A stretch of DNA of 64,000 bases, taken from contig JBAPTI010000031.1 of NCBI GenBank assembly GCA_049282095.1, positions 11,419 through 75,418 of the forward strand. The letters are read 5' to 3'. The translations under genes and the position numbers were made by a program. Position 1 is the stretch's first letter. The number at the start of each line of letters is the position of its first letter. Below the pieces are notes generated by a model. The model did not search any database. It saw nothing but the letters and a program-made list of their open reading frames with translations, and was not told the DNA's origin. The stretch is from Chthoniobacterales bacterium. GTDB taxonomy: Bacteria > Verrucomicrobiota > Verrucomicrobiia > Chthoniobacterales > UBA6821. Of this stretch, positions 43,140 through 64,000 are shown piece after piece.

Positions 43140-43333
43140 AAGGCGAACCAAGTCGCTGGGAAGCGGCGCGGAAGACTGTGAGTGCAGCGAACAGCCCTGA
43201 AAGGCGGCACTGCTTGCCGGGAGGCAAGTGCCGTCAAAGGCGAACCAAGTCGCTGGGAAGCGGCGCGGAAGACTGTGAGAGCAGCGAACAGCCCTGAAAG
43301 GGCGCCACGGCTAGCCGGGAGGCAACTGGCGTG
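43140..43333. repeat. Tandem direct repeat, 2 x 97 bp
   Basis: The units start at 43140 and 43237. The first ~66 nt are identical except for one position, and the last ~30 nt diverge. Each unit ends in a GGGA-looped hairpin. Confidence 0.85.
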
Positions 43334-43898: not shown

Positions 43899-44433
43899 AA
43901 GCGCTGATTAAATCGCATAGAGGCCGTTGCGGGAAGCCGTAGCGGATGCGAAGCAACGACCGGGCAAGCCATGGGCCGCGGGCAAGGCGGCTTCGCGGGC
44001 GCATCCCCGCAGTGGGCTGCCGTAACGGATGCGAAGCAACGGCCGGGCAAGCAAAGCGCCAAGCCAACACAGTTGGCCCCCGTGCCACGCCACGAAGCCA
44101 AAGGCTTTGTGGCCCCCGGCTGGTTATCTCCGCAACCCGGAGGGCTGAAGCCAGTTGTCGATTTTTGCCTCGCCGTCTCCCGACGGTCTCGTCCTCCGGA
44201 CTGCTTCGCAGGCTACGACGCGGCTCCCGCCGCTCGTCGTTGCGGCGATGCTCGCTCGGGCGAGACCGCTGGGGGTATTGACTCGCTCGCTCCCGCTCGG
44301 CTCGCCCTGACGGGTTTGCCTCCGGCAAATCTACCCAAGCCGCACCCGCAGCTACGTGTTGCCCAGCACTCGCGCCTTCAAAAATCAGCAAATGCTCTTC
44401 AGCGGCCTTCATGGGATTTAATCAGCGTTTCCC
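43899..44433 (-). mobile_element. MITE, mosaic long copy (~535 bp) with at least 5 internal insert modules
   Basis: It shares both ends and the backbone with the 276-bp copies. It carries two direct copies of the 33-nt module CCGTARCGGATGCGAAGCAACGRCCGGGCAAGC plus other inserts. The left TIR lacks the terminal GGG. Confidence 0.8.
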
Positions 44434-50151: not shown

Positions 50152-52515
50152 ATGAATTCCCCAGTTCCCATGACTCCTGCCGCGAATCATCCTGCCCCGG
50201 GGCATGGCCATCACGCCCATGCGGGCGGATTTGACTGGCGGGAGTATTACTTTGCGCTGAAGGCCCGTGCATGGATCGTCATTGCGTGCGTGATCCTTGC
50301 GACGCTCTGGGGAGTCTTCTCTGCGGCGACCCAGCAGGGACTCTACACCGCGCGCTGCGTCCTCTTCATCGAACAGGTCAAGAGCCGGGTGCTCAACACC
50401 AAGGTGGAGGATGTCCGCGATGACCAGATCAAGTCGATCGACATGATCAACACCCTCGTCGACCTCCTCCGCAGCTATCCCTTCGCGCTTCGTGTGGTCA
50501 ACCACCTCCAGCTTGCCCGCGACCGCGAGTTTCTGGCCGCGGTCGGACTTTCCGGGAAAGAGACATCCCCGGAACGCGCCGCCGGCGCCCTTGCGAGGAT
50601 GGTCAGCCCCAGCTACCGGCTCAACACCCGCCTCATCGACATCAACCTCACCACCCGGAACCCCTCCCTCTCCGTCAAGCTGGCCAATGCCTACGCCGAG
50701 GAATATCTCCGCTACATCCATGACCAGAGGGCCGAGGCCACCCGTTCCGCCAGCACCTTCCTCATGGAAGAGTCCGACAGGTTGCGCAAGAAGATGAAGG
50801 CATCCGAAGAGGGGATGCAGAACTTCCGCGAGCGCGAGCGTGCGGCATCCATGGAGTCGATGCTGCTCGAGGCGCAGAACCAGCTCACCCAGCTCTCCGC
50901 CCGCCAGAGCGCCATCCAGTCCAAGCTCACCCAGATCAACAGTGACCTCGAGATCGCCCGCGCGAACAAGGGGAAGACCGAGGAACTCCTCCGCCTTCCC
51001 AGCGTCGCCGGAGAGCCCAAGGTTGCCGCGCTGGTCGCCCAGCAGTCGAGCCTGGACAAGCAGTTCATCCTCATCCAGCAACGCTACCGCGCCAAGCACC
51101 CCGCCTACATCAACATCAAGACCCAGCTCGACCTCGGCAAGTCCGAGCTGGACAAGGTGCTCAACGACATCGTCGGCCTTCTCGATTCCATCCGCAGCAG
51201 CCTGCTGGCCCAGCAGGCCGCCGCCAATGCCGAGCGCGAGAGCGCCGAGAAGCGCCTGCTCGAGGTCACCAGCAAGTCCATCGAGTACAACGACCTCAAG
51301 CGCGAGTTGGAGAGCGACACCGCCCTCTACGGCGCCGTCATTGGACGCATCAAGGAAGTCGATGTCACCAAGGAACTCTCCGAATCCCCCGTCGTGATCC
51401 AGGAAAAGGCGAGCGGAGCCTTCCCTGTCAGCAAGCCCCCCCTCAAGATCCTCCTCCAGGCCATGCTATCCGGATTGGCCGTGGGTGTCGGCATCGTCCT
51501 TGCCCTGCACAAGCTTGATACCAGCACCAAGAGCGTCGATCAGCTCGAGCAGCTCACCGGTATCGACGTCGCCGCGGCCATCCCGCAGATCGGCGGCAAT
51601 GCCGCCGCCCGCTTCGGCATCTTCACCAAGGAACAGCAGCAGCAACTGCTCGGATCCTGGAAATCGGCCAAGACCATGATCCTTGACGCATCGGTGCCTC
51701 CGCGTGCGCGACTCTCGCGGATCCACGAGATCCTCAGTCCAGCCATCGCCATGATCGCCCACCCCCACATCTCCACCGTGCTTCCGCGCGGCGGCGAGTT
51801 GGTGGTGAAACAGGACCGCAGCGGCGTCGTGGCGGAAGCCTTCCGCTCGCTTCGCGCCAGTGTGGCCATGAACGCCCGCGTCGAGAGCCAGCGCTCCTTC
51901 CTCCTGACCAGCGCCATCCCGTCGGAGGGCAAGTCCTTCTGCACCTCCAACTTCGCCGTCACCCTCGCACAGCAGGGACTCAGGACTCTCCTCATCGATG
52001 CCGATCTCCGCAAGCCCACCATCTCCGGCATCTTCTTCGGGATGAACCGCAAGCCCGGACTCACCGAAGTCCTGATCGGATCGGCCTCATTGACGGATGC
52101 CGTGCACTCCTCGGGCGTCGAGGGACTCTCGATCCTCACCGCCGGGGGGCGCTCCTCCAATCCCTCCGAACTACTGGCCGGAAAGCCCTTCCGTGATTTC
52201 ATGGTCGAGGCCCTCAGGCAGTATGACCGCGTCGTCATTGATTCCGCCCCCATCCTGGCTGTGAGCGACACGCTGCTTCTCGCCCCCTCCGTCGATGTCG
52301 TCTGCCTCGTAGTCCGCGCCTTCATGACCCCGCGCAAGATGATCCAGCGGGCTCTCAAGTCGCTTCAGGATATCCATGTGAAGCCCGCCGGACTTGTCTT
52401 CAACTGCATCCCTGCCGGCAGCGAGGCCTATTCCTACTCCGGCAAGTATTACGGCTCCTACGGCAGCAAAGGAGTGTATGGAAGTCCGGTTGAAGGGGAA
52501 AAAGCCGAAGGTTAA
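50152..52515 (+). CDS. Polysaccharide co-polymerase / BY-type tyrosine autokinase (Wzc/GumC-like)
   Basis: N-terminal Wzz-type TM and coiled-coil periplasmic domain. The C-terminal kinase has Walker A SAIPSEGKS, Walker B VVIDSAP and a Tyr-rich tail (YSYSGKYYGSYGSKGVYG). Confidence 0.88.
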   Translation: MNSPVPMTPAANHPAPGHGHHAHAGGFDWREYYFALKARAWIVIACVILATLWGVFSAATQQGLYTARCVLFIEQVKSRVLNTKVEDVRDDQIKSIDMINTLVDLLRSYPFALRVVNHLQLARDREFLAAVGLSGKETSPERAAGALARMVSPSYRLNTRLIDINLTTRNPSLSVKLANAYAEEYLRYIHDQRAEATRSASTFLMEESDRLRKKMKASEEGMQNFRERERAASMESMLLEAQNQLTQLSARQSAIQSKLTQINSDLEIARANKGKTEELLRLPSVAGEPKVAALVAQQSSLDKQFILIQQRYRAKHPAYINIKTQLDLGKSELDKVLNDIVGLLDSIRSSLLAQQAAANAERESAEKRLLEVTSKSIEYNDLKRELESDTALYGAVIGRIKEVDVTKELSESPVVIQEKASGAFPVSKPPLKILLQAMLSGLAVGVGIVLALHKLDTSTKSVDQLEQLTGIDVAAAIPQIGGNAAARFGIFTKEQQQQLLGSWKSAKTMILDASVPPRARLSRIHEILSPAIAMIAHPHISTVLPRGGELVVKQDRSGVVAEAFRSLRASVAMNARVESQRSFLLTSAIPSEGKSFCTSNFAVTLAQQGLRTLLIDADLRKPTISGIFFGMNRKPGLTEVLIGSASLTDAVHSSGVEGLSILTAGGRSSNPSELLAGKPFRDFMVEALRQYDRVVIDSAPILAVSDTLLLAPSVDVVCLVVRAFMTPRKMIQRALKSLQDIHVKPAGLVFNCIPAGSEAYSYSGKYYGSYGSKGVYGSPVEGEKAEG

Positions 52516-52790
52516 GGAAGCGCTGATTAAATCGCATAGAGGCCGTTGCGGGAAGAACTGGCCGCGGGCAAGGCGGCTTGGCACGAGCATCCCCGCAGCG
52601 GGCTGTAAGTGCCAAGCCAACGCAGCCCCCGGCCTGTTATCTCCGCAACCCGCAGGGCTGACGTCATTTGTCGATTTTTGCGGCGTTGCTTGCTAGGGCG
52701 AGACCACTGCGGGTATCGCCCAGCGCTCGCGCCTTCAAAAATCAGCAAATGCTCTTCAGCGGCCTTCATGGGATTTAATCAGCGTTTCCT
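52515..52790 (-). mobile_element. MITE, full copy (276 bp), TA flanks
   Basis: TIRs AGGAAGCGCTGATTAAATC and GATTTAATCAGCGTTTCCT. A TA sits at 52513-14 and at 52791-92. The first element base completes the TAA stop of the Wzc-like gene. Confidence 0.88.
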
Positions 52791-52847
52791 TAAGGAACCG
52801 CAGTTCCCTGCTCTCACTTTCTCCTTGGTTCTTTCTTCCCCTTCAGG

Positions 52848-52885
52848 GTTTTAGCCTTTAGCCTTCGGCCTTTAAACCTTTCCCC
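52848..52885 (+). repeat. Period-7 leader array GTTTTAG CCTTTAG CCTTCGG CCTTTAA ACCTTTC CCC directly abutting the uxs ATG
   Basis: Read directly from the sequence. The same GTTTTAG-initiated array type occurs at 54625, 56319 and 57816. Confidence 0.75.
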
Positions 52886-53821
52886 ATGCGTATCCTCATC
52901 ACCGGCGGAGCCGGATTCCTAGGTTCCCACCTCTGTGACCGCCTCATCGAGCAGGGTCACGACATCATCTGCCTCGACAACTTCTTCACCGGTCGCAAGG
53001 CCAACATTCAGCATCTCGTCGGCAATCCCCACTTCGAACTCGTCCGTCACGACGTGATCGACCCGTTCAAGTTCGAGGTCGATCGCATCTACAACCTCGC
53101 CTGCCCCGCTTCCCCTCCTCACTACCAGTACAACCCTATCAAGACCATGAAGACCTCCGTGGTGGGGGCCATCAACTGCCTCGGCCTCGCCAAGAGGGTC
53201 AAGGCACGCGTCTTCCAAGCCTCCACCTCCGAGGTTTACGGGGATCCCAACGTCCATCCCCAGCCCGAGGCCTACTGGGGCCATGTGAACCCCATCGGAC
53301 TACGCTCCTGCTACGACGAGGGGAAGCGCGCGGCCGAGACCCTCTTCTTCGACTATCACCGCGAGAACGGGGTCGACATCCGCGTCATCCGCATCTTCAA
53401 CACCTACGGCCCCCGCATGCTCCCCGACGACGGACGCGTCGTCTCCAACTTCATCGTCCAGGCACTTCAGGGCAAGGACCTCACCGTCTACGGAGAGGGC
53501 TCCCAGACACGCTCCTTCTGCTATGTCGACGACCTCGTCGACGGCTTCATGCGCTTCATGGAGCAGGAGAAGATCGTCGGCCCCATGAACCTCGGTAACC
53601 CCGGCGAGTTCACCATGCTCCAGCTCGCCGAACTCGTCCTCAAGAAGGTAGGCGGCAAGAGCAAGATCACCCACCTCCCGCTTCCTTCCGACGATCCGAA
53701 GCAGCGCCGTCCCGACATCACCCTCGCCAAGGAAACCCTCGGCTGGGAACCGAAAGTCCCTCTCGAAGCCGGCATTGAGAAGACCATCGCGTATTTCAGC
53801 GAAGCGCTTAAGAAAGGCTAA
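52886..53821 (+). CDS. uxs: UDP-glucuronate decarboxylase (UDP-xylose synthase)
   Basis: SDR with [14 protein letters not shown], the catalytic YDEGKR motif, and UXS-like sequence along its full length. Confidence 0.9.
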
Positions 53822-53910
53822 AGGCGAAAGGCTAAAGGCTAAAGGCTAAAGGCTAAAGGCTAAAGGCTAAAGGCTAAAGGCTAAAGGCTAAAGGCGAAAG
53901 GCGAAAGGAT
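53813..53910 (+). repeat. Heptanucleotide tandem array, 14 units (AAAGGCT x10, AAAGGCG x3, AAAGGAT x1)
   Basis: Units were counted from 53813 in steps of 7. The array starts in the last codons of uxs and contains its TAA stop (53819-21). Confidence 0.95.
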
Positions 53911-54113
53911 GGAACCAACGGGCGTTCCAAGTCTCTTGGAAGAGATGAGGAGAAATTTCCGTAGGCAAGCCCGTGAGGGCGGCACGGTTTTGCGAGTTCA
54001 AAGTGCCGTTCAACCGAGCGGGAGCTATCGAGTGCAAAACATGCGCGGAAGAGCCCGCGAAGCGGGGCCCGGAGTTCGGGTTGAAAGGCTCTCTTAAAAA
54101 AACGCCGTCTGCA

Positions 54114-54467
54114 GTGGTGAAAAACGATCTTCAGGAGCGAACAAAGGCCTTTGGATTGCAGGTCATTGATCTTGTCGAGCGTCTACCTATGAGCAGATCC
54201 GGTGACGCGGTTGCCCGGCAACTTATTCGATCAGGCACCTCGATTGGCGCGAATTACCGTGAGGCTAGCCGAGCCCAATCCAAGGACGACTTCATTCACA
54301 AGGTGGCACTCTCCACCAAAGAAGCATCCGAGGCGGCGTTCTGGCTGGAATTGATATCCGAATCGCCCCATTTAAAAACTGCGGGCTCAGTTGAACTTTC
54401 TCAAGAGGCTAGGGAGCTATTGGCTATCTTCACCACGATAGGAAAGAACGCCAATTCAGGACATTGA
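54114..54467 (+). CDS. Four-helix-bundle protein of the 23S rRNA intervening-sequence (IVS) protein family
   Basis: AFGLQVIDLVERLP...ARQLIRSGTSIGANYREASRAQSKDDFIHKVALSTKEASEAAFWLELI is the family signature as I recall it. A GTG start at 54114 gives the typical ~117 aa, so the upstream part of the track ORF is probably non-coding. Confidence 0.8.
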   Translation: MVKNDLQERTKAFGLQVIDLVERLPMSRSGDAVARQLIRSGTSIGANYREASRAQSKDDFIHKVALSTKEASEAAFWLELISESPHLKTAGSVELSQEARELLAIFTTIGKNANSGH

Positions 54468-54582
54468 CCGGGGCTATTTCCTTCCCTCTTCTTGTTTTAT
54501 CCTTTATCTTCCCCTCTTTGCCCATCAGAACCTCTCTCGCCCTTATCCTTCCGTCTTTCCCACATTCCCGTGTTTCTGATTT

Positions 54583-54660
54583 TTTAGCATTTCACCTTTA
54601 GCCTTTCCCTTTTTTCTCTTTCAGGTTTTAGCCTTCAGCATTTCACCTTCAGCCTTTCCT
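54583..54660 (+). repeat. Period-7 pyrimidine-rich leader array (TTTAGCA TTTCACC TTTAGCC TTTCCCT ... GTTTTAG CCTTCAG CATTTCA CCTTCAG CCTTTCC) abutting the ugd ATG
   Basis: Eleven 7-nt units were read from 54583 to 54659. It contains stretches complementary to the AAAGGCT array. Confidence 0.75.
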
Positions 54661-56028
54661 ATGTCCACCACCATCTGCTGTCTCGGCGCCGGTTATGTCG
54701 GCGGTCCCACCATGGCCATGATCGCCGCCAAGTGCCCCGATATCCGGGTCACCGTCTGTGATCCCAACGAGAAGCGCATTGCCGCCTGGAATTCCGACGC
54801 GCTTCCCGTTTACGAGCCCGGCCTTCAGGAAGTCGTCGAATCCGCCCGCGGGAAGAACCTCTTCTTCTCCACCGATGTCCGCAAGGCCATCCGCGAATCC
54901 GACATCATCTTCGTCAGCGTCGGCACCCCGACCAAGACCTACGGAGTCGGTGCCGGCCGCGCCGCCGATCTCAAGTACATTGAGGCTGCTGCCCGCATGA
55001 TCGCCGAGGAGGCCGTCGGCCCCAAGGTCATCGTCGAGAAGAGCACAATTCCCGTGAAGACCGCCGAGGCCATGCTCACCATCCTCCGGTCCAATTCCAA
55101 GAACGGCACCTTCCAGGTCCTCTCCAATCCCGAGTTCCTCGCCGAGGGAACGGCCATCGACGATCTGAACAATCCCGACCGCGTCCTCATCGGCGGCGAG
55201 CAGACCCCCGAGGGACTGGCCGCCATCGAGAAAGTCGTCTCCATCTACGCCCGCTGGATCCCCCGCGAGAAGATCCTCACCACCAACCTCTGGTCCTCCG
55301 AGCTTTCCAAGCTCGTGGCCAATGCCTTCCTCGCCCAGCGCATCTCCTCGATCAATTCGATTTCGGCTCTCTGCGAGGCTACCGGGGCGGATGTCGACGA
55401 GGTCGCCCGCGCCATCGGCAAGGACTCGCGCATCGGGCCCAAGTTCCTCAAGGCCTCCGTCGGCTACGGCGGCTCCTGCTTCCAGAAGGACATCCTGAAC
55501 CTCACTTACCTCTGCCAGCACTTCGGCCTGCCCGAGGTCGCCGCCTACTGGGAGAGCGTGGTGAAGATCAACGACTGGCAGAAGGCACGCTTCAGCGGCC
55601 GCATCGTCCGCGACCTCTTCAACACCGTCAACGGCAAGCACATCGGTATCCTTGGATTCGCCTTCAAGAAGGACACCAACGACACCCGTGAGACAGCCGC
55701 CATCGCCGTCTGCCGCGACCTTCTCGCCGAAGGGGCCAAGGTCGTCGTCTACGATCCCCAGGTCGGGGAGGAACAGATCCGTTCCGAGGTCCTCGGCACC
55801 GGAACCAACCCCAACCTCGTCGTCGTCAAGACCGCCATGGAAGCCTGCGACGGTGCCCATGCCGTCGCCATCCTCACCGAGTGGGACGAGTTCAAGGATC
55901 TCGACTTCAAGAAGATCCACGACGGCATGCTCAAGCCCGCCTTCCTCTTCGACGGACGGAATATCCTGCCGCACGCCAAGCTCAAGGAGATCGGCTTCCG
56001 TCTCTTCGCCATCGGCAAGCCTGCATAG
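54661..56028 (+). CDS. ugd: UDP-glucose 6-dehydrogenase
   Basis: N-terminal Rossmann [13 protein letters not shown], catalytic GGSCFQKD, and UGDH-like sequence along its full length. Confidence 0.92.
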
Positions 56029-56113
56029 AGCGGGCTTGTTCAATGGGGGAGGGGAGCGGACTCCGCGCTCTGCCCAGAGCCTTGGTTCCCAGCTACCAGC
56101 TACCACTCTTTCT

Positions 56114-56162
56114 TTGTTCATTTTCTGTTGAACAAATGCGTTGTTCGATTATTTTTGAACAA
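56114..56162. promoter_or_regulatory. Two tandem inverted repeats TTGTTC-N10-GAACAA (56114-56135 and 56141-56162): candidate operator
   Basis: Both half-site pairs are perfect and have identical 10-nt spacing, with a 27-nt centre-to-centre distance. An extra half-site TTGTTCAA lies at 56036-43. Confidence 0.55.
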
Positions 56163-56390
56163 TCAGGCCCCTGCTTTTCCAAGCGTGAAGCCCCTTCATC
56201 CAGACCCCCCGCTGGTAAAACCCTCCCCGGTTGCCAAGGGCGGCAGCATTGCCCGTCATCCCGCCGCCTTGGTTGCCTTTCCTGGCCTTTCGACAACCCT
56301 CAACCTCCCTCATCTCGTGTTTTAGCTTTTAACTTTCCGCTTTTTCACTTTCCCCCCTAACAGCCTAACAGTCTTCAGTCTAAAAGCCTT

Positions 56391-56867
56391 ATGCAAACCC
56401 TCACTCCCTTCCAGCGTGAATCCGTGGAGCTATTCGTGGGGGCCTTTGCGGTTCTCTCCCTGCCGCGTTCCCTGGGGGAGATCTACGGCCTCATCTACAG
56501 CAGTGAGGAGCCCTTGGCCTTCGACGATCTTGTCAACCGCCTCGACCTGAGCAAGGGCTCCGTGAGCGAGGGTTTGCGCCTGCTACGCTCCCTCGGGGCC
56601 GTGAACCTCGTACATGTTGCGGATTCCCGCAAGGAGCATTTCACCGCCGAGACCAGCCTCCGCAAGCTAGCCGGCGGCTACCTCCGCGACCGCATCGAGC
56701 CCTACCTGAGTGGAGGGGAGGCACGGATCAACTCCCTCCGTAAGGTATGCGACAACGACACCTCACGGTCCGATTTCCAAGAGAAGCGCATCAACCAACT
56801 CCTCTCCTGGCACCGCTTCTTCAGCAAAGTCCTGCCTGTCTTCAAGACCCTCGCAGGGAAGACATAA
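56391..56867 (+). CDS. GbsR/MarR-like winged-helix transcriptional regulator
   Basis: 158-aa ORF. LPRSLGEIYGLIYSSEEPLAFDDLVNRLDLSKGSVSEGLRLLRSLGAV resembles the GbsR-type wHTH. Confidence 0.65.
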   Translation: MQTLTPFQRESVELFVGAFAVLSLPRSLGEIYGLIYSSEEPLAFDDLVNRLDLSKGSVSEGLRLLRSLGAVNLVHVADSRKEHFTAETSLRKLAGGYLRDRIEPYLSGGEARINSLRKVCDNDTSRSDFQEKRINQLLSWHRFFSKVLPVFKTLAGKT

Positions 56868-57048: not shown

Positions 57049-57381
57049 ATGGTATTTATTGAATTCCCCGCTTTTACCAAGACCATCACCAAACTGCCTG
57101 ATGAAGACTATGCCACCTTTCAGCATGAACTCCTCGTTGACCCAGAAATGGGCGATCTCATCCGTGGCACGGGTGGATTTCGCAAAGCTCGAATGGCCTT
57201 TCCAAGCGTGGGAATCGGTAAGAGCGGAGGAGCTCGCGTCATCTACCTCCATATCAAAGAACTACAGACCATCATCCTGGTAACACTCTATGCAAAATCA
57301 AAAAAATCAGACCTCAGTCGCGCGGAAGAAAACGAACTCCGTTTCCTCGCTGCGCAAATCCGCAGCACTCTCGGTGCTTGA
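57049..57381 (+). CDS. RelE/HigB-2-like toxin
   Basis: 110-aa ORF with F..F.K....L.....F...L...P..G.LI.GTGG.RK.R and GKSGGARVIY motifs typical of HigB-2-type toxins. The gene order is toxin first. Confidence 0.7.
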   Translation: MVFIEFPAFTKTITKLPDEDYATFQHELLVDPEMGDLIRGTGGFRKARMAFPSVGIGKSGGARVIYLHIKELQTIILVTLYAKSKKSDLSRAEENELRFLAAQIRSTLGA

Positions 57382-57682
57382 TGGATTGGAGTCATTCAGT
57401 GGTGCTAGCCTGATTGAGGCGACACAGGAGGGGGTCGCAGCTCTTAAGGCAAAAAAAACACTGCGAACCAGTAAGATCGCTCCCCCTGTCACTCTTGATC
57501 CCCGGCAGATCGCCGAAATCCGTTCCTCGCTGAATGCCAGCCAAGGGGTTTTTGCCTCCTACCTCGGTGTCAGCAAAGCGGCGGTCGTGGCTTGGGAATA
57601 CGGAGTACGTCAGCCCTCAGGAGCGGCCTTGAAGCTCCTGTCGATTGCCCGTAAGAACCCCAGCGTCCTAGTCGCCTCCTGA
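57374..57682 (+). CDS. XRE-family HTH antitoxin (HigA-2-like)
   Basis: The HTH IRSSLNASQGVFASYLGVSKAAVVAWEYGVRQPSGAALKLLSIARKNP is typical of the family. The start is assumed at GTG 57374, overlapping the toxin stop, but TTG 57386 is also possible. Confidence 0.65.
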   Translation: MLDGLESFSGASLIEATQEGVAALKAKKTLRTSKIAPPVTLDPRQIAEIRSSLNASQGVFASYLGVSKAAVVAWEYGVRQPSGAALKLLSIARKNPSVLVAS

Positions 57683-57697
57683 AAGCCTGCCTTCCTT

Positions 57698-57795
57698 GGG
57701 AGCCGCTGATTAAATCGCATGGAAGCCGTTGCGGGAAGCTGTAACGGATGCGAAGCAACGGCCGGGCAAGCCATGGACCGCATCCCTGCGGCTTG
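57698..57795 (-). mobile_element. MITE fragment (one end, module-containing subtype)
   Basis: GGGAGCCGCTGATTAAATCGCATGGAAGCCGTTGCGGGAAG followed by the CTGTAACGGATGCGAAGCAACGGCCGGGCAAGC module. The other end is absent. Confidence 0.75.
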
Positions 57796-57926
57796 GTGCT
57801 CGACTCGGTTTCCCCGTTTTAGCCTTAAGCCTTTAAACTTTAGCCTTTCGCTTTTGACGGCACTTGCAGGGAGGATCTAAAGAGATTCCAATTGATGGTT
57901 TACTTTAGGGCGATATAAATAAAGCG

Positions 57927-58043: not shown

Positions 58044-58301
58044 TGAACCACGACCAGATCCGCAGACTCTGATCCGGCCAATTTTTCGCTTTGTAACGCT
58101 TCAACGTTCTAACCTTTTCAACCTCCTCGAGACCCCCTCCTTCCCTAACAGTCCAACAGCCTTTTGTCTGGCGATCTCCCCGGATCAGCCATCCTCGATC
58201 TGCAGATCTTCGGACTACTCGCCTAAGCCTCGTATGACATCGACGAAGGAGAGGCAAGCAAAGCCACTTACCCAAGCGCCTTTTGTCTAAAAGCCTCATC
58301 C

Positions 58302-60044
58302 ATGATCACATCATTTTTTAAACTCCTCTCCCGCTGCTACCGGCTAGCCCTTCCCTATGGGCGGTTGAAGCTTTTTGCTGTTCTTGGACTGATTCTCTTC
58401 AATGGCCTGCTTCAGCTTATTGGCGTCACATCGATCTTTCCGTTCTTTGCGCTGGCAGCTGATCCCGAGCGTATTCGCAACTCCACCTTCGGGACTTGGT
58501 TTCTAAACTTGTTGCCGCAAATGAATAATAACCACTTGCTGGTTGTTGCAGGATGCTTCTCGATTCTCATGCTGGTGATCGCCAGTCTGGGAAGCATGGT
58601 GAGCGAATACCTGCGCGTACGCTATGGGTATGGTTTCTCTCATTGGTTGAGAGGACGTATTTTACGATCATACGCAAGTCAGCCCTACAGCTATTTTCTG
58701 CGGAGAAACTCCGCAGCTCTGACTCTGAGGGTTTTTGATATTCAGAATTTTACCCAGAGCGTGCTTCTTCCAATTGGAGAAATCATTACCAAGTTGGTGT
58801 TGGTCGCCCTACTGCTCGGTACTTTGATCCTCGTGCAACCATGGATTGCATTAGGGGGGATTGTGATTCTCGGGGGATTCTACTTCATAGTGTTTTTGTG
58901 GGTGCGTCCCCGTACCAAGGTAGTTGGCGACGGATTACAGCGTCACAGTGTTGAGTTCAATAAGAATACGAATCAGTTGCTACATGGCATCAAGACAGTC
59001 TTTATCCATGAGAAGAGCAGTTTTTTTATCCAAAGAAGTCTTGAGCATTCCCTGCAGATCGGGCGATATCAGGGATTGATCCCACTCTATAGCAACGGGC
59101 CCCGCTACCTGATCGAGCCGATAGCCTTCGGGGGGCTCGTGGCTATTGTGATCGTGCTGGCAATCCAAGGGCGCCCATTTTCCGACATCTTGCCCAACCT
59201 TTCTGTGATGGCTCTGGCTGCTGCCAAGCTTTTACCAGCGCTCCAACTTCTCTACAGCCAGCTGGTTACGGCGGCTTCCAATAGCTATACCTTGGGCCAG
59301 TTAGAGGAGGAGATCATGGAAATCGAAGAGGAGGCATCCCTCGTTCTACAGGATTGCCCCAAGAAGGAGTCCCTATTCTTCTGCAAGGAGATTAGTCTGG
59401 AGAATCTTACCTTTGCCTATCCCTGTTCGGCACATGACACCATTGAGAGTTTCTCGCTAACCATTCGAAAAAACGAGTCCATTGGTATTGCTGGACCATC
59501 GGGCAGTGGAAAATCGACGCTTGTGGATCTCATCCTTGGGCTGCACTCACCTAGGAGCGGTAGACTTCTAGTGGATGGCATGCAGCTCACAAAAAAAACT
59601 CTGAGGGCCTGGCGCCAGATGATCGGCTATGTTCCTCAAGATATCTACCTCTTGGACGACACAGTGCAGGCAAACATTGCCTTCGGCATCAAACCGGAAG
59701 AAATTGACCTAAATGCCCTGAGAGAAGCGGCGAGTGGCGCCCAGATTCTTGAATTCATTGAAAAAGAGCTACCCGAAGGATTTAAGACAACTGTGGGTGA
59801 ACGTGGTGTTCGACTCTCAGGTGGACAACGTCAAAGAATCGGTCTTGCCCGCGCCCTCTACCATCACCCTCAGGTACTCATTCTTGATGAGGCAACTAGT
59901 GCGCTGGACCATAATACTGAGGCTGCAGTCATGGATACCATTCATCAACTCCAAGGAAAGATGACCATGATCACGATTGCACACCGGCTCAGTACACTGG
60001 AACGTTGTGACAGGGTTGTGGAATTAGTAAGGAAAGTCTCATGA
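58302..60044 (+). CDS. ABC exporter, fused TMD-NBD (MsbA-like)
   Basis: Six N-terminal TM helices, Walker A GPSGSGKST, signature LSGGQRQR and Walker B LILDEATSALD. Confidence 0.88.
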   Translation: MITSFFKLLSRCYRLALPYGRLKLFAVLGLILFNGLLQLIGVTSIFPFFALAADPERIRNSTFGTWFLNLLPQMNNNHLLVVAGCFSILMLVIASLGSMVSEYLRVRYGYGFSHWLRGRILRSYASQPYSYFLRRNSAALTLRVFDIQNFTQSVLLPIGEIITKLVLVALLLGTLILVQPWIALGGIVILGGFYFIVFLWVRPRTKVVGDGLQRHSVEFNKNTNQLLHGIKTVFIHEKSSFFIQRSLEHSLQIGRYQGLIPLYSNGPRYLIEPIAFGGLVAIVIVLAIQGRPFSDILPNLSVMALAAAKLLPALQLLYSQLVTAASNSYTLGQLEEEIMEIEEEASLVLQDCPKKESLFFCKEISLENLTFAYPCSAHDTIESFSLTIRKNESIGIAGPSGSGKSTLVDLILGLHSPRSGRLLVDGMQLTKKTLRAWRQMIGYVPQDIYLLDDTVQANIAFGIKPEEIDLNALREAASGAQILEFIEKELPEGFKTTVGERGVRLSGGQRQRIGLARALYHHPQVLILDEATSALDHNTEAAVMDTIHQLQGKMTMITIAHRLSTLERCDRVVELVRKVS

Positions 60045-60691
60045 TAAATCTTCTTTCCTACTTGAAATCAATTGCAGGAGGGTGGATCGCATTCCTCCGA
60101 AGGAAACAATTACAAGAGGCATGTAGATACCGTTACTGGCGACAAAAAGTCACAATTAATCCGAGGGCTCGGATGAATGGGGAACGTGGTATTGAGTTGG
60201 GGGAGGGCACAGTCATATATGAAAGCGCTCACTTATGTGCCGGATACCTCTTGCCTGATGAGTCAATTCAGAGCGAACCCATTGGTTCAATTGTGATCGG
60301 AAGAAACTGTACTGTGATGCCTGGTGCAATTCTTGCTACCTATGGCGGTAGGATTGAAATTGGAAGCAATGTAAGCATCAATCCAAATGTTATTATCTAT
60401 GGAAATGGAGGGGTTTGGATTGGAGATAAAACTCGCATTGCAGCCCAAGTCGTAATTGTCGCTCAGAACCACATCTTTGCCGACTCCTCGAGGCCAATAA
60501 TGGAACAGGGGTTAAGTACTAAAGGAATCGTTATTGGAAATGATGTTTGGATAGGTGCTGGAGCTAAAATTCTTGATGGGATTACCATTGGAGATGGTGC
60601 GGTGATCGGCGCGGGTGCCGTTGTTAGATCTGATATATCTCCCTACAGCATTGCGGTTGGAGTTCCGGCTAGAGAGGTATCTAGAAGATAG
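60041..60691 (+). CDS. Hexapeptide-repeat (LbH) acetyltransferase
   Basis: Repeated [LIV]-G-x4 hexapeptides (IGSNVSINPNVIIYG...IGNDVWIGAGAKILDGITIGDGAVIGAGAVV). It has a 4-nt overlap with the ABC gene. Confidence 0.85.
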   Translation: MINLLSYLKSIAGGWIAFLRRKQLQEACRYRYWRQKVTINPRARMNGERGIELGEGTVIYESAHLCAGYLLPDESIQSEPIGSIVIGRNCTVMPGAILATYGGRIEIGSNVSINPNVIIYGNGGVWIGDKTRIAAQVVIVAQNHIFADSSRPIMEQGLSTKGIVIGNDVWIGAGAKILDGITIGDGAVIGAGAVVRSDISPYSIAVGVPAREVSRR

Positions 60692-60724
60692 TCTTCCGGA
60701 AAATTGTTCTTAAGAGGTAATCAG

Positions 60725-62956
60725 ATGAGCTTCTCAATCGTTTATATAGTTATAAGCAACGGGAGGGATGAGCATGCCGATATGGCATTGGCTTCAATGT
60801 TATCTACTAAAATTAGCAACCCTCTGATTAGGATTTCTTTGCTCTGTGATGAGAACTCTGCCAAAAGTATCAAAAACAACAAGCATAGAATTCTTAAGGT
60901 ATGTGATGAATTAATACCGGTTACCGTGCCGGATGGTGATGGGACATTCAAAAATCGCTGGATTAAAACTCAGTTGCCCAAATTCATCCAAGGAGATGCA
61001 CTTTATCTTGATTCTGACACTCTTGTTCGATTGCCTTTAAATAAGTTGCCAGACTTGGTCGAGGAGCTGGGAATGGTTGCCAACCACAATGGTGTTAAAA
61101 TCTACGAACAATTCTGGCATGAGGATAGAAAGATCTTCACGAAAATGGGCTGGTCAACTCCTTATATCCAAACTTATTACAATGGGGGGGTACTGTTTTT
61201 TAAGCACTGTTCAAGAACAATTTATTTTTTTGAACAGTGGCACAAATTTTGGTGTGAGAGCACCGATAAGACAGGGAGGCTTCGCGATCAGCCTTCTCTA
61301 AACCAAGCAATCTATTCGAGTAATGTTAAATGCGAGGAACTCCCTTCTTCCTATAATGCACAGATTCCAAGCGACTGGATAAAAAGTCACAATGCCGTGA
61401 TCTGGCATTTCTTTTCCTCATCGCATGATAAATCCAAAACTATATTTGATCACATTCTCTCAGCCATCCCTCGTTCTTCATTGGACAGTCTTAAGCACTT
61501 GATTGGAGAAGTTCTCCAAAGAACTGAACCATGGAAAAACGGGGACTGGATATCTTGCGCTATTTTGCGAGAGTTAACGGAAACAAGGCGGCCTACTATA
61601 CCTGAAACTCACTGGTTAAATGGATGCAAGTTAAAAGCGATAATATATTATATTATTTGCAAGTCTGAATGTGTCTTGGGATACATCTTTTTCAAATCCA
61701 ACATTTCAAAAAAATGTGGGTTTACATCAAAAGAAGAACCAATAAAATTATTAAAAAAACAATTTAGAATTGTTGTTAGTTCTCCTACGTTTGAACTAAG
61801 TGGAGCCAATGTTTTTTTGGCCAAGTTGCTCGATCAACTTCATCAATATGGAGTGGAATCCGATTGGGTTATTACTCATCACTCACCGAATGATATTCAT
61901 CCCTGGTTAGGTAATCACAAGTTCAAGGTTCATAAATTGCCAAACACGAATGTTAAAGAAGTTCGAAGGAGGCAGGAAATCCTGTTGGAATTTCTGAATA
62001 GCCGTCAACCTTGCGTCTATATTCCCAACTACGATGCAGATATGGTTTGTATCACACCGGCGCTTCCAGATGAGGTAAAGAGCGTTTTGATCCTGCACTC
62101 TGATGAAGCATTCTACTATTCTCTTGCTCGAGAGTACGGTTCTTATTTTGATAAGATTGTTGTTGTGAGTTGTGCAATCTACAACAAACTTATAAATTCA
62201 GTATACACACTCAAAGAGAAGACATGTCAACTGTCTTATGGAGTAGATCATGTTTCCAAAAATCATCGTATTCAGCGTGTACCATCCCTCCCTCTTACAG
62301 TAACCTACTGTGGGCGAATCTCGAAGATCCAGAAACGCATTCACGACCTTGTAGCAATCATCAATCGCTCCGATCAGGAGTGTCTGCCGATTGAATATCA
62401 CATTGCCGGAACGGGCTTAGACGAAGAAGAATTCTTTAACCTTGTGAGCATTCCCCTGAGCAAGGGAAAGGTGGTGAATCACGGGTTCCTCTCCAATGAC
62501 GAGACCCGGAAATTACTCGATCATAGCGACGTTTTCATCATGACATCCGATTATGAGGGGCAGTCCATCGCGCTTCTTGAGGCCATGATGCGCGGATGTG
62601 TTCCGGTTGTGACGGCAATTGACAGTGGTGTTGACGAATTGATTATCCATGGATCCACTGGATTCATGGTGCCTGTTGGAGATATTGAAGGCTTTATGGG
62701 GGTGATTAGGACGCTTTCCGAAGACTTATCCAAAGTGATTAAACTGAGTGAAAATATTTCGGATTTTATGGCGAATGGGAAATACAGGATTGATCGGGCT
62801 GCCCTAGAGTATAAGTCGTTGTTTGAATCACTCTTTGATAAACCCAAAAAATACCAAGCAAGGGGTTCAAAAAAGATCCAACTTCCCAAGCATTACAAGC
62901 TTTTAAATCGGTTGAAAAAAAGATTTTTTGGTGATGAAAACCACAAAAAGATATAA
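60725..62956 (+). CDS. Two-domain glycosyltransferase (N-terminal GT-A/GT8-like with DxD; C-terminal GT4-type GT-B)
   Basis: N-terminal YLDSDTLV (DxD) and YNGGVLFF. The C-terminal EGQSIALLEAMMRGCVPVVTAIDSGVDELIIHGSTGFMV is the GT4 EX7E region. Confidence 0.75.
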   Translation: MSFSIVYIVISNGRDEHADMALASMLSTKISNPLIRISLLCDENSAKSIKNNKHRILKVCDELIPVTVPDGDGTFKNRWIKTQLPKFIQGDALYLDSDTLVRLPLNKLPDLVEELGMVANHNGVKIYEQFWHEDRKIFTKMGWSTPYIQTYYNGGVLFFKHCSRTIYFFEQWHKFWCESTDKTGRLRDQPSLNQAIYSSNVKCEELPSSYNAQIPSDWIKSHNAVIWHFFSSSHDKSKTIFDHILSAIPRSSLDSLKHLIGEVLQRTEPWKNGDWISCAILRELTETRRPTIPETHWLNGCKLKAIIYYIICKSECVLGYIFFKSNISKKCGFTSKEEPIKLLKKQFRIVVSSPTFELSGANVFLAKLLDQLHQYGVESDWVITHHSPNDIHPWLGNHKFKVHKLPNTNVKEVRRRQEILLEFLNSRQPCVYIPNYDADMVCITPALPDEVKSVLILHSDEAFYYSLAREYGSYFDKIVVVSCAIYNKLINSVYTLKEKTCQLSYGVDHVSKNHRIQRVPSLPLTVTYCGRISKIQKRIHDLVAIINRSDQECLPIEYHIAGTGLDEEEFFNLVSIPLSKGKVVNHGFLSNDETRKLLDHSDVFIMTSDYEGQSIALLEAMMRGCVPVVTAIDSGVDELIIHGSTGFMVPVGDIEGFMGVIRTLSEDLSKVIKLSENISDFMANGKYRIDRAALEYKSLFESLFDKPKKYQARGSKKIQLPKHYKLLNRLKKRFFGDENHKKI

Positions 62957-63929
62957 ATCTGCAAAACTCGTCATAGTCGGGTACGACTTTCACAGCGAGG
63001 GAGGGGCGTGGCGCTCTATTTATCGTTATTTCAGGTTCTGTGAAGCAATAGGTGAAGATGTGATGCTCATTGACCGTCGAAAGCAGCGTACGCTACGTCG
63101 CTTGGCATGCGCTTTTCTTTTCAGCCCTAAGATTCTTTTTAACGGCATAGAGTCATTCTCCCGCTGGGAGGCGATAGCGGCCTGTCTTCTCCGAAAGGAC
63201 ATACTTGTTTATCTCCATGATACGGAGAGCAGCATACGGGCTTTTTATCAATCCAGTCCGATAAAATATCGGTTTTTCAGATTGATCCTGAGGCGTAACA
63301 CTATTCTGGTTGTTTCCAAGCAAATGGAGGAATATTATCGGCGGGATCTAGGCGTTCAGCGATGCCAAGTGGTGCGTGAGGCGGTGGTATTACCTGAAGT
63401 GCCAGAGTTTGATCCAACTTATCGTCATATCGTCATGGTTGGATCGGTTGAGGAACGAAAGGGAGTTGCGCTTTACTCCGAGGTGGCCCGACTTGCGCTG
63501 GAAAAGGGGCTGAAATGGAAGTTTCATTGGGTAGGAGCGCTGGCAAGTCAGTCCTTGGGAGTGCTCTCCGAAGATATAAGGTGGTGGGGTTGGCAGGATT
63601 CTCCAACTGATTTTATCAAGAAAACTGATGTATTCTTTCTCTCTTCGGTTGATGACCCATTACCTCTCGCTTGCTTGGAGGCGATCTCTCTAGGGAAACG
63701 TTGTCTCGTATACCGGGGCACTGGAATCTCCGAACTGTTGGATGGGGTGGGGGGATGCGCCGTCATGGAGCATTATACCCCCGAGGAGGCTCTGATGCAG
63801 CTGGGGGCGATCCTTAATCAGGAGCCAGATTCACAAAGACTACTTGAGATTGCCACTCAGGAGGGTTCGCTTCCAGCCTTTGCGGAGAAAGTCAACCAAG
63901 TTTTAAACCCCGACACTCGTCTTCCATGA
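62928..63929 (+). CDS. GT4-family glycosyltransferase
   Basis: MVGSVEERKGVALY...DVFFLSSVDDPLPLACLEAISLGKRCLVYRGTGISELL is a GT-B C-terminal domain. The start is 62928 or 62934. Confidence 0.75.
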   Translation: MVMKTTKRYKSAKLVIVGYDFHSEGGAWRSIYRYFRFCEAIGEDVMLIDRRKQRTLRRLACAFLFSPKILFNGIESFSRWEAIAACLLRKDILVYLHDTESSIRAFYQSSPIKYRFFRLILRRNTILVVSKQMEEYYRRDLGVQRCQVVREAVVLPEVPEFDPTYRHIVMVGSVEERKGVALYSEVARLALEKGLKWKFHWVGALASQSLGVLSEDIRWWGWQDSPTDFIKKTDVFFLSSVDDPLPLACLEAISLGKRCLVYRGTGISELLDGVGGCAVMEHYTPEEALMQLGAILNQEPDSQRLLEIATQEGSLPAFAEKVNQVLNPDTRLP

Positions 63930-64000
63930 AAGTTCTGATCGTCGAGGATGCCCTCAACAGTCTGCAGGGACATTGGTTTCAGTATATCTCCGATCTTGTC
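63926..64000 (+). CDS. 5' end of a further ORF (MKVLIVEDALNSLQGHWFQYISDLV...), truncated by the window edge
   Basis: It has an ATGA overlap with the preceding GT gene. Only 25 codons are visible, so function is unknown. Confidence 0.4.
   Translation, partial: MKVLIVEDALNSLQGHWFQYISDLV

Follow-up and report, generated by a model that had tools for sequence, protein, structure and literature searches.

A tandem heptamer array between uxs and ugd of a Chthoniobacterales bacterium as the probable 5' arm of an intervening-sequence-like cassette around a PF05635 gene

The tandem (AAAGGCT)14 array that follows uxs in this Chthoniobacterales genome is probably the expanded 5' arm of a cassette resembling the intervening sequences (IVSs) of 23S rRNA, with a predicted RNA stem and predicted processing by RNase III, a reading to which we assign a probability of roughly 60%. 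The cassette, as proposed here, consists of a promoterless gene for a PF05635 four-helix-bundle (4HB) protein between two inverted tandem-heptamer arrays, and would be wedged, in sense orientation, between the uxs and ugd cistrons of a host operon. Positions below are those of the window, the whole 64-kb stretch of contig JBAPTI010000031.1 that was analysed, and the genes, arms, and arrays given with coordinate ranges are described on its plus strand.

RESULTS

Anatomy of the heptamer array and its counterparts

Repeat finding, inverted-repeat finding, folding, duplex energies, and orthologue comparison together define the 5' purine-rich arm at 53813..53908. Tandem Repeats Finder describes it as a repeat of period 7 with 13.7 copies, 96% matches, a score of 171, and the consensus AAAGGCT, three units being of the AAAGGCG variant. 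The first-pass annotation had given 14 units over 98 bp, slightly more than the 96 bp measured here, and had correctly placed the start of the array in the last codons of uxs with the stop codon inside it. The upstream host gene, uxs (52886..53821; Pfam PF16363 and PF01370), encodes a UDP-glucuronate decarboxylase-type epimerase/dehydratase and ends in a TAA at 53819-53821, and the array supplies its final three codons (K-K-G) as well as the stop. The C terminus reads ...ALKKG* with the cassette and ...ALAQ* or ...ALAK* in relatives without it. From these last three codons on, the 7-nt units run head to tail through the intergenic region and are paired convergently with inverted arrays, as is characteristic of intergenic heptanucleotide tandem repeats, and their contiguity, with no unique spacers, distinguishes the array from a CRISPR array.

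The 3' pyrimidine-rich arm region (54468..54660) stops 3 nt short of the ugd ATG and holds AGCCTTT-type arrays at 54583-54612 and 54632-54658. Two other arrays belong to the AAAGGCT unit family. The first, TTTAGCC in 3.6 copies in the uxs leader (52850..52874; Tandem Repeats Finder), is complementary to the main array and probably lies outside the cassette; the second, TTTAGCC in 4.4 copies at 57818..57848, is 1.8 kb 3' of ugd, forms a duplex with the main array at z -3.4 to -4.6, and has no partner arm of its own that we could find. Allowing up to two mismatches, we counted 23 occurrences of the two-unit 14-mer in the window, where shuffled sequence predicts 0.27, and its minus-sense copies are confined to the uxs leader, the ugd leader, and 57821-57855, with a single exception at 1321. 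"Empty" hairpins of the array type are present at other junctions within the window, and the arms can therefore exist without a local 4HB gene.

The enclosed gene and its host operon

The gene enclosed by the arms (54117..54467) has a GTG start and encodes a 116-aa protein that was assigned to PF05635/TIGR02436, the "23S rRNA intervening sequence protein" family, also called S23p, on the basis of profile matches and an exact 116-aa cluster. A look-up of the identical protein gave no record for it, nor for the uxs product. It scores 57.1 bits against PF05635 (Pfam; E 2.5e-15, cut-off 33.8) and 75.8 bits against TIGR02436 (cut-off 24). The AF2 model, of a monomer, has a pLDDT of 95.8, with helices at residues 2-21, 27-51, 56-82, and 91-114, and the modelled four-helix bundle is closest to 2RLD (TM 0.81-0.87), with TM 0.67-0.81 to 2GSC (Xcc0516); chains A-E are present in each of 2RLD, 2GSC, and 4DWL, the last being an Avd structure that is considered below. 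The gene is under strong purifying selection, with dN/dS of 0.066 against the orthologue at locus L001 and 0.03-0.10 across orthologue comparisons. It is the sole 4HB gene in the 64-kb window, and the inner segments of the cassette are unique there, so that the several near-identical copies expected of a MITE or foldback element are not found within the window.

Between the 5' arm and the 4HB gene lies a 208-nt spacer (53909..54116) unique to this genome. It contains a 62-aa ORF (53909-54097) with no family match, is absent from 7 of 7 orthologous cassettes, resembles no DNA in any of the fetched loci, and gives no structure signal on folding (z -0.95). Downstream, the second host gene, ugd (54661..56028; Pfam PF03721, PF00984, and PF03720), encodes UDP-glucose 6-dehydrogenase, and the bracketed cassette exactly occupies the space between the two operon genes. 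Neither a sigma-70-type promoter nor a plus-strand terminator was found between uxs and ugd, and a search of 52400-56400 yielded no intrinsic terminator on the plus strand. At gathering and E-value thresholds, Rfam returned no match in 52400-54800 besides a chance miRNA, and in the window as a whole it detected a single tRNA and no rRNA. Since the flanks are the protein genes uxs and ugd, the element is not inserted in helix 25 or 45 of 23S rRNA, where IVSs reside; its host is an mRNA operon.

Pairing between the arms

With an inverted-repeat finder, the main array matches 54605-54661 over arms of 45-53 nt (74-78% complementarity), 54583-54613 over 31 nt (81-84%), and the uxs leader at 52850-52874 over 25 nt (92%). 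The leader matches quoted in the first-pass annotation are exact, being TTTAGCCTTTAGCCTT at 52850-52865 and CCTTTAGCCTTT at 54595-54606. As RNA, the array and the ugd leader are predicted to form a duplex of -95.9 kcal/mol that none of 100 dinucleotide shuffles equals, and at z -5.6 these terminal inverted repeats are capable of forming an enclosing stem like that of an IVS; the stem is imperfect (74-78%), and shuffled purine-rich against pyrimidine-rich tracts alone already reach about -60 kcal/mol. When 53790-54670 is folded, the minimum-free-energy structure has the array paired along all of the 54468-54660 tract, with the gene inside. An IVS-like bracket around the 4HB gene, made up of the array and the AGCCTTT-type tract ahead of ugd, had been suggested in the first-pass annotation; the suggestion is supported, and the bracket is found family-wide, as described below.

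In six orthologous uxs-4HB-ugd cassettes, complementarity is 36.5 between a cassette's own arms and 32.6 on cross-pairing, a difference that is not significant (permutation p=0.10), and mismatches in the arms of family loci, which could tell selection on RNA from selection on DNA, show no significant bias to G:U (78 G:U versus 61 A:C, p=0.17).

Comparison with relatives at the uxs-ugd junction

What the array belongs to can be judged from three relatives (loci L084-L086) in which uxs is 92-95% and ugd 92-94% identical to the window genes. They have no 4HB gene, their uxs-ugd spacer is only 67-81 nt, and they have no purine array after uxs. The array is therefore tied to the 4HB gene rather than to uxs, and no purine arm occurs without that gene.

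This comparison bears directly on another use of the array put forward in the first-pass annotation, a functional stem with the uxs leader that encloses uxs itself. Such 5'-3' pairing of the uxs mRNA, which would regulate its stability or translation, is thermodynamically possible, as it could draw on 16 consecutive complementary nt, on the 25-nt match at 92%, and on a predicted duplex energy of -75.7 kcal/mol, at z -3.4 to -4.1. However, the computed duplex with the ugd leader is stronger, close relatives that lack the 4HB gene also lack a purine array 3' of uxs, at locus L003 a separate purine arm for the uxs leader lies upstream of it, between wzc and uxs, and the family-wide bracket surrounds the 4HB gene rather than its upstream neighbour. 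We consider regulation of uxs by this route very improbable. By analogy with L003, the 3' end of wzc was also considered as a purine arm for the uxs leader of the window, and was dropped because the duplex does not exceed shuffles (z -1.0).

In seven orthologous cassettes the array has 2-5 units versus the 14 found here, which marks the 14 units as a lineage-specific expansion. At L001, the 3' pyrimidine tract has grown to about 310 nt, and the number of units varies even among near-identical loci of another cassette. It is clear from these comparisons that the arms change length by slippage, as the first-pass annotation had anticipated for the repeat number. The range of 2-14 units among relatives would also suit a contingency locus, in which slippage of the 7-nt unit switches expression via the reading frame or promoter spacing, but other observations speak against this: the uxs stop lies within the first two units, so that copy number downstream of it cannot alter the uxs protein, and there is no promoter-like site, so that the locus does not qualify as a phase-variable one; the 4HB gene starts 209 nt beyond the array, with which it shares no fixed frame; and arm length in the family is tightly peaked at about 4.3 units, unlike the broad distribution of a switch. 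A role of this kind is extremely improbable.

The bracket in the wider PF05635 family

The wider comparison covered the best-matching 78 of 591 hits to a Verrucomicrobia-centred profile, in MAG loci from at least 12 phyla. Flanking inverted repeats at z>4 were found at 44 of these 78 homologous PF05635/TIGR02436 loci (56% of the best 78 of 591), against 7.6% of 264 neighbour ORFs and 2.3% of 259 shifted pseudo-genes, and about 40% of the family members in the MAG sample are unbracketed. Among 4HB genes on plasmids of isolates (from cyanobacteria, Bacteroidota, Chloroflexota, and Treponema), 12 of 14 are bracketed at z>6. The flanks of other family copies, which the first-pass annotation had named as the place where its proposal could fail, are thus bracketed in the majority of cases in both samples. 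Inverted-only flanking repeats outnumber direct-only ones by 30 to 4, and the best flanking arrays have a period of 7 or 14 in 48 of 68 cases on the upstream side and in 51 of 70 on the downstream side. The density of arrays whose period is divisible by 7 is 2.77 per kb up to 320 nt from the gene, compared with 0.40 per kb in the rest of the loci.

In these brackets, the median array has 4.3 units, and the median arm is 31 nt long, with a gap of 24 nt to the gene start and 22 nt past the gene stop. The left arm begins a median of 0 nt from the upstream stop codon (25 of 31 between -40 and +20 nt), the right arm terminates a median of 11.5 nt ahead of the downstream start codon, and the genes on either side both run in the direction of the 4HB gene at 34 loci and antisense to it at 2. 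The annotated junctions include an RND adaptor/permease junction, DUF1156/Swt1-HEPN (twice), DrmD/PglX, and csx2/cas1. Some loci have odd arm orders, with R for purine and Y for pyrimidine arms, such as R-Y-gene-Y' or R-gene-R'-Y. The position of the purine arm upstream of the ORF was considered as a sign of cassette polarity and set aside as uninformative, because a hairpin with a purine 5' and a pyrimidine 3' arm is identical on both strands; the informative measure is orientation with respect to the neighbouring genes (34:2). We found no published link between PF05635 genes and flanking heptamer arrays in a literature coverage that lies outside most subscription journals. The layout of gene plus bracket is a hallmark of the PF05635 family across phyla.

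The control rates also allow the arms to be weighed as ordinary host elements, that is, pyrimidine translation leaders combined with a slippage array in the 3' UTR, their complementarity arising from low-complexity composition and the 4HB protein having no role. Pyrimidine-rich ugd leaders of the TTTAGC/TTTAAC type do persist in the relatives without the cassette, pyrimidine repeat leaders precede many genes in the window, two unrelated genes there have a nearly identical leader in common, and shuffled arms still give the energy of about -60 kcal/mol noted above. Against this, wherever the 4HB gene is missing the purine array is missing too, flanking inverted repeats are far rarer around neighbour ORFs than around family members, and the bracket recurs in other phyla with very dissimilar units that are not homopurine (ATTTCGA, TAATTCG, GATTTAC, and ACTTTAGGC). 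We therefore judge an origin as separate leader and trailer elements improbable.

DISCUSSION

The cassette as a proposed counterpart of rRNA intervening sequences

In Coxiella, the IVS consists of an S23p ORF with a 28-bp terminal inverted-repeat stem that is cut by RNase III, and it measures 428-444 nt, its ORF being reported as decaying and not translated (PMC4990558). The cassette described here resembles the ORF-bearing 23S IVSs of Leptospira and Coxiella burnetii in carrying an S23p/PF05635 ORF, in its typical length of about 430-460 nt, in its terminal inverted repeats with a predicted stem of about 28-31 bp, in its predicted sense orientation inside a host transcript, and in its sporadic distribution. 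Unlike the IVS, it has tandem heptamer arrays for arms, and its ORF, unlike that of Coxiella, is maintained by selection. Excision by RNase III has been demonstrated for the IVS and is predicted for the cassette.

We envision that, in the polycistronic RNA, the two arms pair as a long stem and loop out the 4HB ORF, which would bring the uxs stop and the ugd start together much as an IVS is looped out from helix 45 of 23S rRNA. Such a stem would be a likely substrate of RNase III, and cutting it would set the cassette apart from, or insulate it against, the cistrons of the host. RNase III stems between cistrons occur in the early mRNAs of phage T7 and in the spacers of rRNA operons. The predicted long, imperfect stem, formed from the flanks of a segment in a polycistronic RNA, is similar in kind, but the T7 and rRNA spacer stems are unique sequences that are neither built of heptamer arrays nor bound to one gene family.

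The encoded protein may contribute to this arrangement as well. Its modelled fold is that of Avd (PDB 4DWL and 8UB7; TM 0.69-0.74), the accessory protein of diversity-generating retroelements (DGRs), but sequence identity is about 15% and there is no reverse transcriptase and no template or variable repeat near the cassette. We know of no heptamer-array brackets around Avd genes. Avd forms a pentamer that recognises a stem-loop in DGR RNA (bioRxiv 10.1101/2023.10.23.563531). By analogy, the putative pentamer encoded in the cassette may bind the stem formed by its arms.

Possible recognition of the arms as DNA

An alternative, which we think unlikely, is that the cassette is a foldback-type mobile element whose arrays serve as terminal inverted repeats and are recognised at the DNA level, the RNA stem being a by-product. 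The recogniser would be the 4HB protein or a recombinase encoded elsewhere, and the "empty" hairpins would be non-autonomous derivatives. The cassette has a parallel in the REP/REPIN system, in which a RAYT gene lies between inverted copies of short repeats that are also scattered "empty" in intergenic regions, just as the 4HB gene is flanked by inverted repeat copies that also occur "empty". RAYT can, however, be recognised as an HUH transposase, and REPs are palindromes of fixed sequence that recur throughout the genome, whereas no catalytic motif is known in the 4HB protein, the units vary by junction, and the arms are tandem arrays.

Several observations favour recognition on DNA. The presence of the cassette varies among close relatives, with arm and gene gained or lost together, and empty hairpins adjoin loaded ones with the same unit. 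Conservation of the arms, also a sign of selection under the IVS-like reading, exceeds the needs of pairing, as both are identical across three of three loci (L020, L023, and L038) while the ORFs of L020 and L038 differ by a dS of about 1.2, and the lack of a G:U excess over A:C among arm mismatches points the same way. Unit class also follows protein similarity more than host phylum: protein identity is 57.0% for the same class in different phyla versus 51.0% for different classes in the same phylum (0 of 2000 permutations). On the other side, no near-identical second copy is present in the window or at any locus examined, the paralogues within loci are just 39-45% identical to the window protein, and synteny is stable across dS>1. 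The preference for sense orientation in operons (34:2) points to reliance on host transcription, and PF05635 is a family without a known catalytic motif. Comparison with the empty L084-L086 junctions reveals no visible target-site duplication at the uxs/ugd junction, but divergence of those spacers precludes an alignment. An identical protein (P0012) in differing contexts, at one point a candidate instance of mobility, was discarded when the contexts proved to be variants of one locus.

Relation to intergenic heptanucleotide repeats

The cassette also has a bearing on the heptanucleotide repeats that are known from several groups of bacteria. The STRR sequences of cyanobacteria are intergenic tandem heptanucleotide repeats. 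In Xanthomonas, most heptamer repeats lie on assembled transcripts, the GGGAATC repeats include 70-75 inverted pairs, and the supplement of that study places an array of 4 units between accB (XCC0517) and the gene of the family member with a crystal structure, XCC0516 (PMC4692102). Geobacter metallireducens has paired sets of 4-5 hepta- or octanucleotides (PMC2700814), and TAACTGA repeats are found in Beggiatoaceae, cyanobacteria, and Bacteroidetes (PMC4679880). The arrays described here share with all of these a 7-nt unit, about 4-5 copies, an intergenic location near start or stop codons, and frequent occurrence as inverted pairs. They differ in being enriched around PF05635 genes, a link not drawn in the heptanucleotide-repeat papers, and most arrays in the Xanthomonas, Geobacter, TAACTGA, and STRR genomes are "empty".

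It is possible, and we offer this tentatively as a single proposal with its parts taken together, that PF05635 4HB pentamers are dedicated partners of intergenic heptamer-array hairpins. The gene with its two inverted arrays would then represent an element of very wide distribution, resident in transcripts, in its autonomous form; the "empty" arrays, including STRR, Xanthomonas GGGAATC, the Geobacter sets, and the hairpins of this window, would be its non-autonomous form; and the 23S rRNA intervening sequences would be the special case of insertion into rRNA. About one heptamer might be bound per subunit, and the protein may control the folding, processing, or spread of the hairpins.

Implications

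Two puzzles meet at this locus. One is the function of the "23S rRNA intervening-sequence protein" family, with thousands of genes and several crystal structures, and the other is the over-representation of tandem heptanucleotide repeats in the intergenic regions of many bacteria. Both here and in related loci the two prove to be connected, with inverted heptamer arrays usually enclosing the gene. There are also practical consequences. Heptamer arrays disrupt short-read assemblies and are easily confused with mini-CRISPR arrays, and this confusion may account for the CRISPR-linked scores that the PF05635 family received in large screens (PMC10910872, PMC3936711). For the host, a cassette of this kind between cistrons may change the coupling of the genes on either side of it, in operons for capsule, efflux, fatty-acid, and defence functions.

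RESULTS

The capsule/exopolysaccharide-type locus of the window encodes a Wzy_C-like protein, a porin, a Wza-like exporter, a Wzc-like kinase, uxs, ugd, an ABC exporter, and glycosyltransferases. Exactly between the uxs and ugd cistrons, in the sense orientation, lies a selected four-helix-bundle (4HB) gene that has no recognisable sigma-70-type promoter of its own and is flanked by inverted heptamer arrays. Tandem Repeats Finder recovers (AAAGGCT)13.7 at 53813-53908 (96% matches, score 171), right at the end of uxs (52886-53821), whose TAA stop (53819-53821) is inside the array. Complements of the unit lie in the uxs leader (52850-52874, 3.6 copies), in the ugd leader (54583-54612 and 54632-54658), and at a third place, 57818-57848, and a search with two consecutive units, tolerating at most 2 mismatches, gives 23 matches in the window against 0.27 expected. 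The array and leader tracts described in the first-pass annotation are confirmed, the array measuring 96 bp rather than 98 bp. Pairing with either leader had also been raised there. With the whole pyrimidine tract at 54468-54660, the array gives a predicted duplex of -95.9 kcal/mol (z -5.6 versus dinucleotide shuffles), and an inverted-repeat finder, duplex energies, and the MFE fold of 53790-54670 agree on this pairing; the duplex with the uxs leader is weaker, at -75.7 kcal/mol (z about -3.4 to -4.1 versus such shuffles), and a 5'-3' stem enclosing uxs is very improbable.

The 4HB gene runs from a GTG at 54117 to 54467 and encodes 116 aa, with PF05635 and TIGR02436 above cut-offs. A protein cluster identical to it exists, and its AF2 model is a confident four-helix bundle whose nearest structures are, in order, BT_0352 (2RLD), Xcc0516 (2GSC), and the DGR protein Avd (4DWL, 8UB7). 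A scan for sigma-70-type signals found no promoter-like or terminator-like site between uxs, the 4HB gene, and ugd. The array is separated from the 4HB start by 208 nt (53909-54116) that only the window has and that none of the seven orthologous cassettes contains; no structure signal appears there (z -0.95), similar DNA occurs in no fetched locus, and the 62-aa ORF inside this stretch has no Pfam or NCBIfam match.

The wzc-uxs-4HB-ugd order is kept in those seven distinct relatives (homologous loci L001, L002/L003, L164-L166, L167, and L168), whose 4HB proteins are 78-88% identical. In every one, the uxs C-terminus (KKG-stop or similar) falls inside AAAGGCT/AAAAGCT/GAAGGCT units, and TTTAGCC/TTTCAGC-type units precede ugd. 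Because the purine arm of these orthologues has only 2-5 units, the 14 in the window are a lineage-specific expansion, making this an unusually expanded member; in L001, the expansion is on the pyrimidine side instead, to about 310 nt. Searching metagenomes with uxs turned up three close relatives (L084-L086; identity 92-95% for uxs and 92-94% for ugd) that have ugd directly after uxs, with a spacer of 67-81 nt and no purine array after uxs. Their uxs ends in ALAQ-stop or ALAK-stop, versus ALKKG-stop with the cassette, where the last three codons and the stop come from the purine array. Since these loci lack the array as well as the 4HB gene, the purine array follows the 4HB gene rather than uxs, arm and gene being acquired or lost as one. 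The same loci keep a shorter pyrimidine-rich leader with TTTAGC/TTTAAC motifs, as ordinary leader and trailer low-complexity sequence might; joint gain and loss fits that explanation poorly, and we consider it improbable.

The first-pass annotation had proposed an IVS-like cassette, after the intervening sequences (IVSs) of 23S rRNA, to be doubted if other copies of the gene had no flanking inverted repeats. A profile from 35 homologues gave 80 loci in GTDB species genomes of at least 12 phyla, and in the 78 genes tested, the best-matching subset of 591 matches to this Verrucomicrobia-centred profile, the 320 nt upstream of the ORF were aligned to the reverse-complemented 320 nt on its downstream side, with dinucleotide shuffles as the reference for the score. 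Flanking inverted repeats reach z>4 in 56% of these genes and z>6 in 51% (z=18 in the window), versus passes in 7.6% of 264 neighbouring ORFs from the same loci, several of which only share a cassette arm, and 2.3% of 259 shifted pseudo-genes. The bracket is a hallmark of the 4HB gene family, with none detectable in about 40% of members sampled from metagenome-assembled genomes (MAGs). In an independent sample, annotated loci on plasmids of cultured cyanobacteria, Bacteroidota, Chloroflexota, and Treponema, 12 of 14 have z>6. Direct repeats alone are far rarer (direct-only 4, inverted-only 30), the direct cases being near-palindromic units, tandem 4HB genes, or R-gene-R'-Y layouts (R, purine-rich arm; Y, pyrimidine-rich arm). 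Where the layout is R-Y-gene-Y' or R-gene-R'-Y (loci L093 7330-7924, L145 1-620, L072 2770-3550, and L047 190-970), a single pyrimidine arm has two possible purine partners, or a single purine arm two pyrimidine partners, and the alternative stems would include or exclude the 4HB ORF. A Bacteroidota MAG locus (L052 2770-3560) carries two tandem 4HB genes, each after a 9-mer array of the AAGTACTTA/GAGTGCCTA type common to both.

Among the top-scoring flanking arrays, 48 of 68 upstream and 51 of 70 downstream repeat with a period of 7 or 14. Near the gene, the median copy number of period-7 arrays is 4.3 (quartiles 3.3-4.6, rare expansions to 9-28), and the density of arrays whose period is a multiple of 7 is about 7 times higher within 320 nt of a 4HB gene than in the rest of the loci. 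Units vary by cassette (AAAGCGG, AAAGTAG, AAAGTGG, ATTTCGA, GATTGCG, TAATTCG, GATTTAC, and GGAGGTC; 9-mers in Bacteroidota) and match between the two arms of any one cassette. At the median, complementary arms are 31 nt long and lie 24 nt ahead of the 4HB start and 22 nt past its stop; the left arm starts a median of 0 nt from the upstream gene's stop and the right arm ends a median of 11.5 nt ahead of a start codon of the downstream ORF, so the cassette takes up the whole gap between the cistrons, and pairing of the arms would juxtapose host stop and start. In 34 of 50 loci, the gene points the same way as both of its neighbours; in 2, it lies antisense between co-directional genes. Annotated host junctions include RND adaptor/permease, FabH/hydrolase, DUF1156/Swt1-HEPN (twice), DrmD/PglX, helicase/methylase, and csx2/cas1. 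Plasmids of Pseudanabaena (L174), Anabaena cylindrica (L175), and Nostoc sp. TCL26-01 (L179) have cassettes between csx2 and cas1 or cas2 and cas1, antisense in the latter two, and these positions may be a source of CRISPR-linked reports for the family.

Other window junctions carry "empty" hairpins (465-561, 1177-1324, 10426-10517, 14567-14704, 18725-18913, about 29030-29170, about 35200-35310, and others) with a purine-rich 5' arm, a pyrimidine-rich 3' arm, short tandem units (GGGATGAA, GGTTAAAA, CACGAAAA, and AATCAGGA), and a loop without a gene. Empty hairpins also adjoin loaded cassettes of matching unit in three loci (L018, L058, and L069), so arms can exist without a local 4HB gene. The purine-rich arm is 5' in all hairpins, which says nothing about the ORF because this property is strand-symmetric.

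Further repeats in the window include a MITE-like element, about 280 nt long and bounded by terminal inverted repeats of 36 nt (AAGCGCTGATTAAATCGCATAGAGGCCGTTG ... CAGCGGCCTTCATGGGATTTAATCAGCG), found in no related locus, with copies at 52512-52793 (inside the wzc-uxs spacer), 15327-15606, 27238-27518, and 43899-44430 and partial copies near 21960-22060 and 57690-57790. A near-identical pyrimidine leader of about 40 nt (CCTTTTTCATTTTTCATTyTTCCTTCATCCTTTCC) stands right before the ATG of two unrelated minus-strand genes, an FGGY sugar kinase (20202-21701; leader 21702-21745) and a MiaB-like radical-SAM enzyme (27505-28944; leader 28945-28990). At 43140-43330, after an MlaD-domain gene, a unit of about 97 nt is directly repeated once, with AAAGGCGAA ahead of each copy; these copies have no Rfam match or fold signal (z -1.0). 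A RelE/HigB-like toxin gene overlaps an HTH (MqsA-like) antitoxin gene at 57049-57682. The block at 58300-64000 (ABC exporter, hexapeptide acyltransferase, and GT4 glycosyltransferases) has third-position G+C of 0.38-0.55 versus about 0.8 elsewhere and probably entered the polysaccharide locus by horizontal transfer.

Strong purifying selection acts on the 4HB ORF (dN/dS 0.066 between the window and L001 and 0.03-0.10 in other pairs). In three further loci (L020, L023, and L038), each arm is identical across all three while adjacent spacers have diverged and ORF synonymous divergence is about 1.2 (L020 versus L038), so arm sequence itself, not only pairing, is constrained or homogenised. Change of repeat number by slippage, suggested in the first pass, is borne out by whole-unit differences in either arm of another cassette at 94-98% identity (L169-L171) and by the range of 2-14 units at uxs; a slippage switch is the least probable alternative. 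Protein identity is 57.0% for the same unit class in different phyla versus 51.0% for different classes in the same phylum (permutations as extreme, 0/2000), on a crude classification of sequences that are not phylogenetically independent. Unit class following protein similarity over host phylum fits either inheritance or transfer of gene and arms as a unit or protein-repeat specificity. The former would also suit a DNA-level foldback-type mobile cassette, a possible though distinctly less probable account that is compatible with the RNA model; G:U and A:C arm mismatches (78 versus 61, p=0.17) do not separate RNA-level from DNA-level constraint, and arm co-variation among six orthologous cassettes is not significant.

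DISCUSSION

We favor, at a probability of roughly 0.6, a bracketed, operon-embedded cassette with arm pairing, a looped-out ORF, and RNase III-type processing, with the structural part far more secure than the RNA processing. Within the operon transcript, arm pairing would loop out the 4HB ORF and bring host stop and start together, and a near-perfect duplex of about 31 bp would be a plausible RNase III substrate. The 4HB protein may bind the stem, because the one characterised relative, Avd, is pentameric and binds a stem-loop in the RNA of its own element (bioRxiv 10.1101/2023.10.23.563531).

In 23S rRNA, a 28-bp terminal stem loops an ORF-bearing IVS out of helix 45, and RNase III makes the cut (PMC4990558). 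The window element shares the inverted-repeat stem and the ORF family but is not in 23S rRNA, and by analogy it would work like an IVS without being one. The Coxiella IVS ORF is reported to be decaying (PMC4990558), in contrast to the strong purifying selection on the 4HB ORFs here.

Tandem heptanucleotide repeats are a known but unexplained intergenic feature. They form 70-75 inverted, mostly transcribed pairs in Xanthomonas (PMC4692102) and paired sets of 4-5 units, proposed as regulator sites, in Geobacter (PMC2700814), and they also occur in Beggiatoaceae, cyanobacteria, and Bacteroidetes (PMC4679880). None of these three papers mentions the 4HB family, and the Xanthomonas supplement places a 4-unit GGGAATC array between accB (XCC0517) and XCC0516, a crystallised family member (PMC4692102). 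Our literature search, incomplete in coverage, found no description of a 4HB gene with an inverted-heptamer bracket. IVSs and intergenic heptamer repeats are each already known; what appears to be new is an IVS-like cassette outside rRNA whose arms are heptamer arrays. In large screens, the 4HB family has been scored as associated with cas loci or with arrays resembling CRISPRs (PMC3936711, PMC10910872), and operon-embedded cassettes with short repeat arrays would explain those scores.
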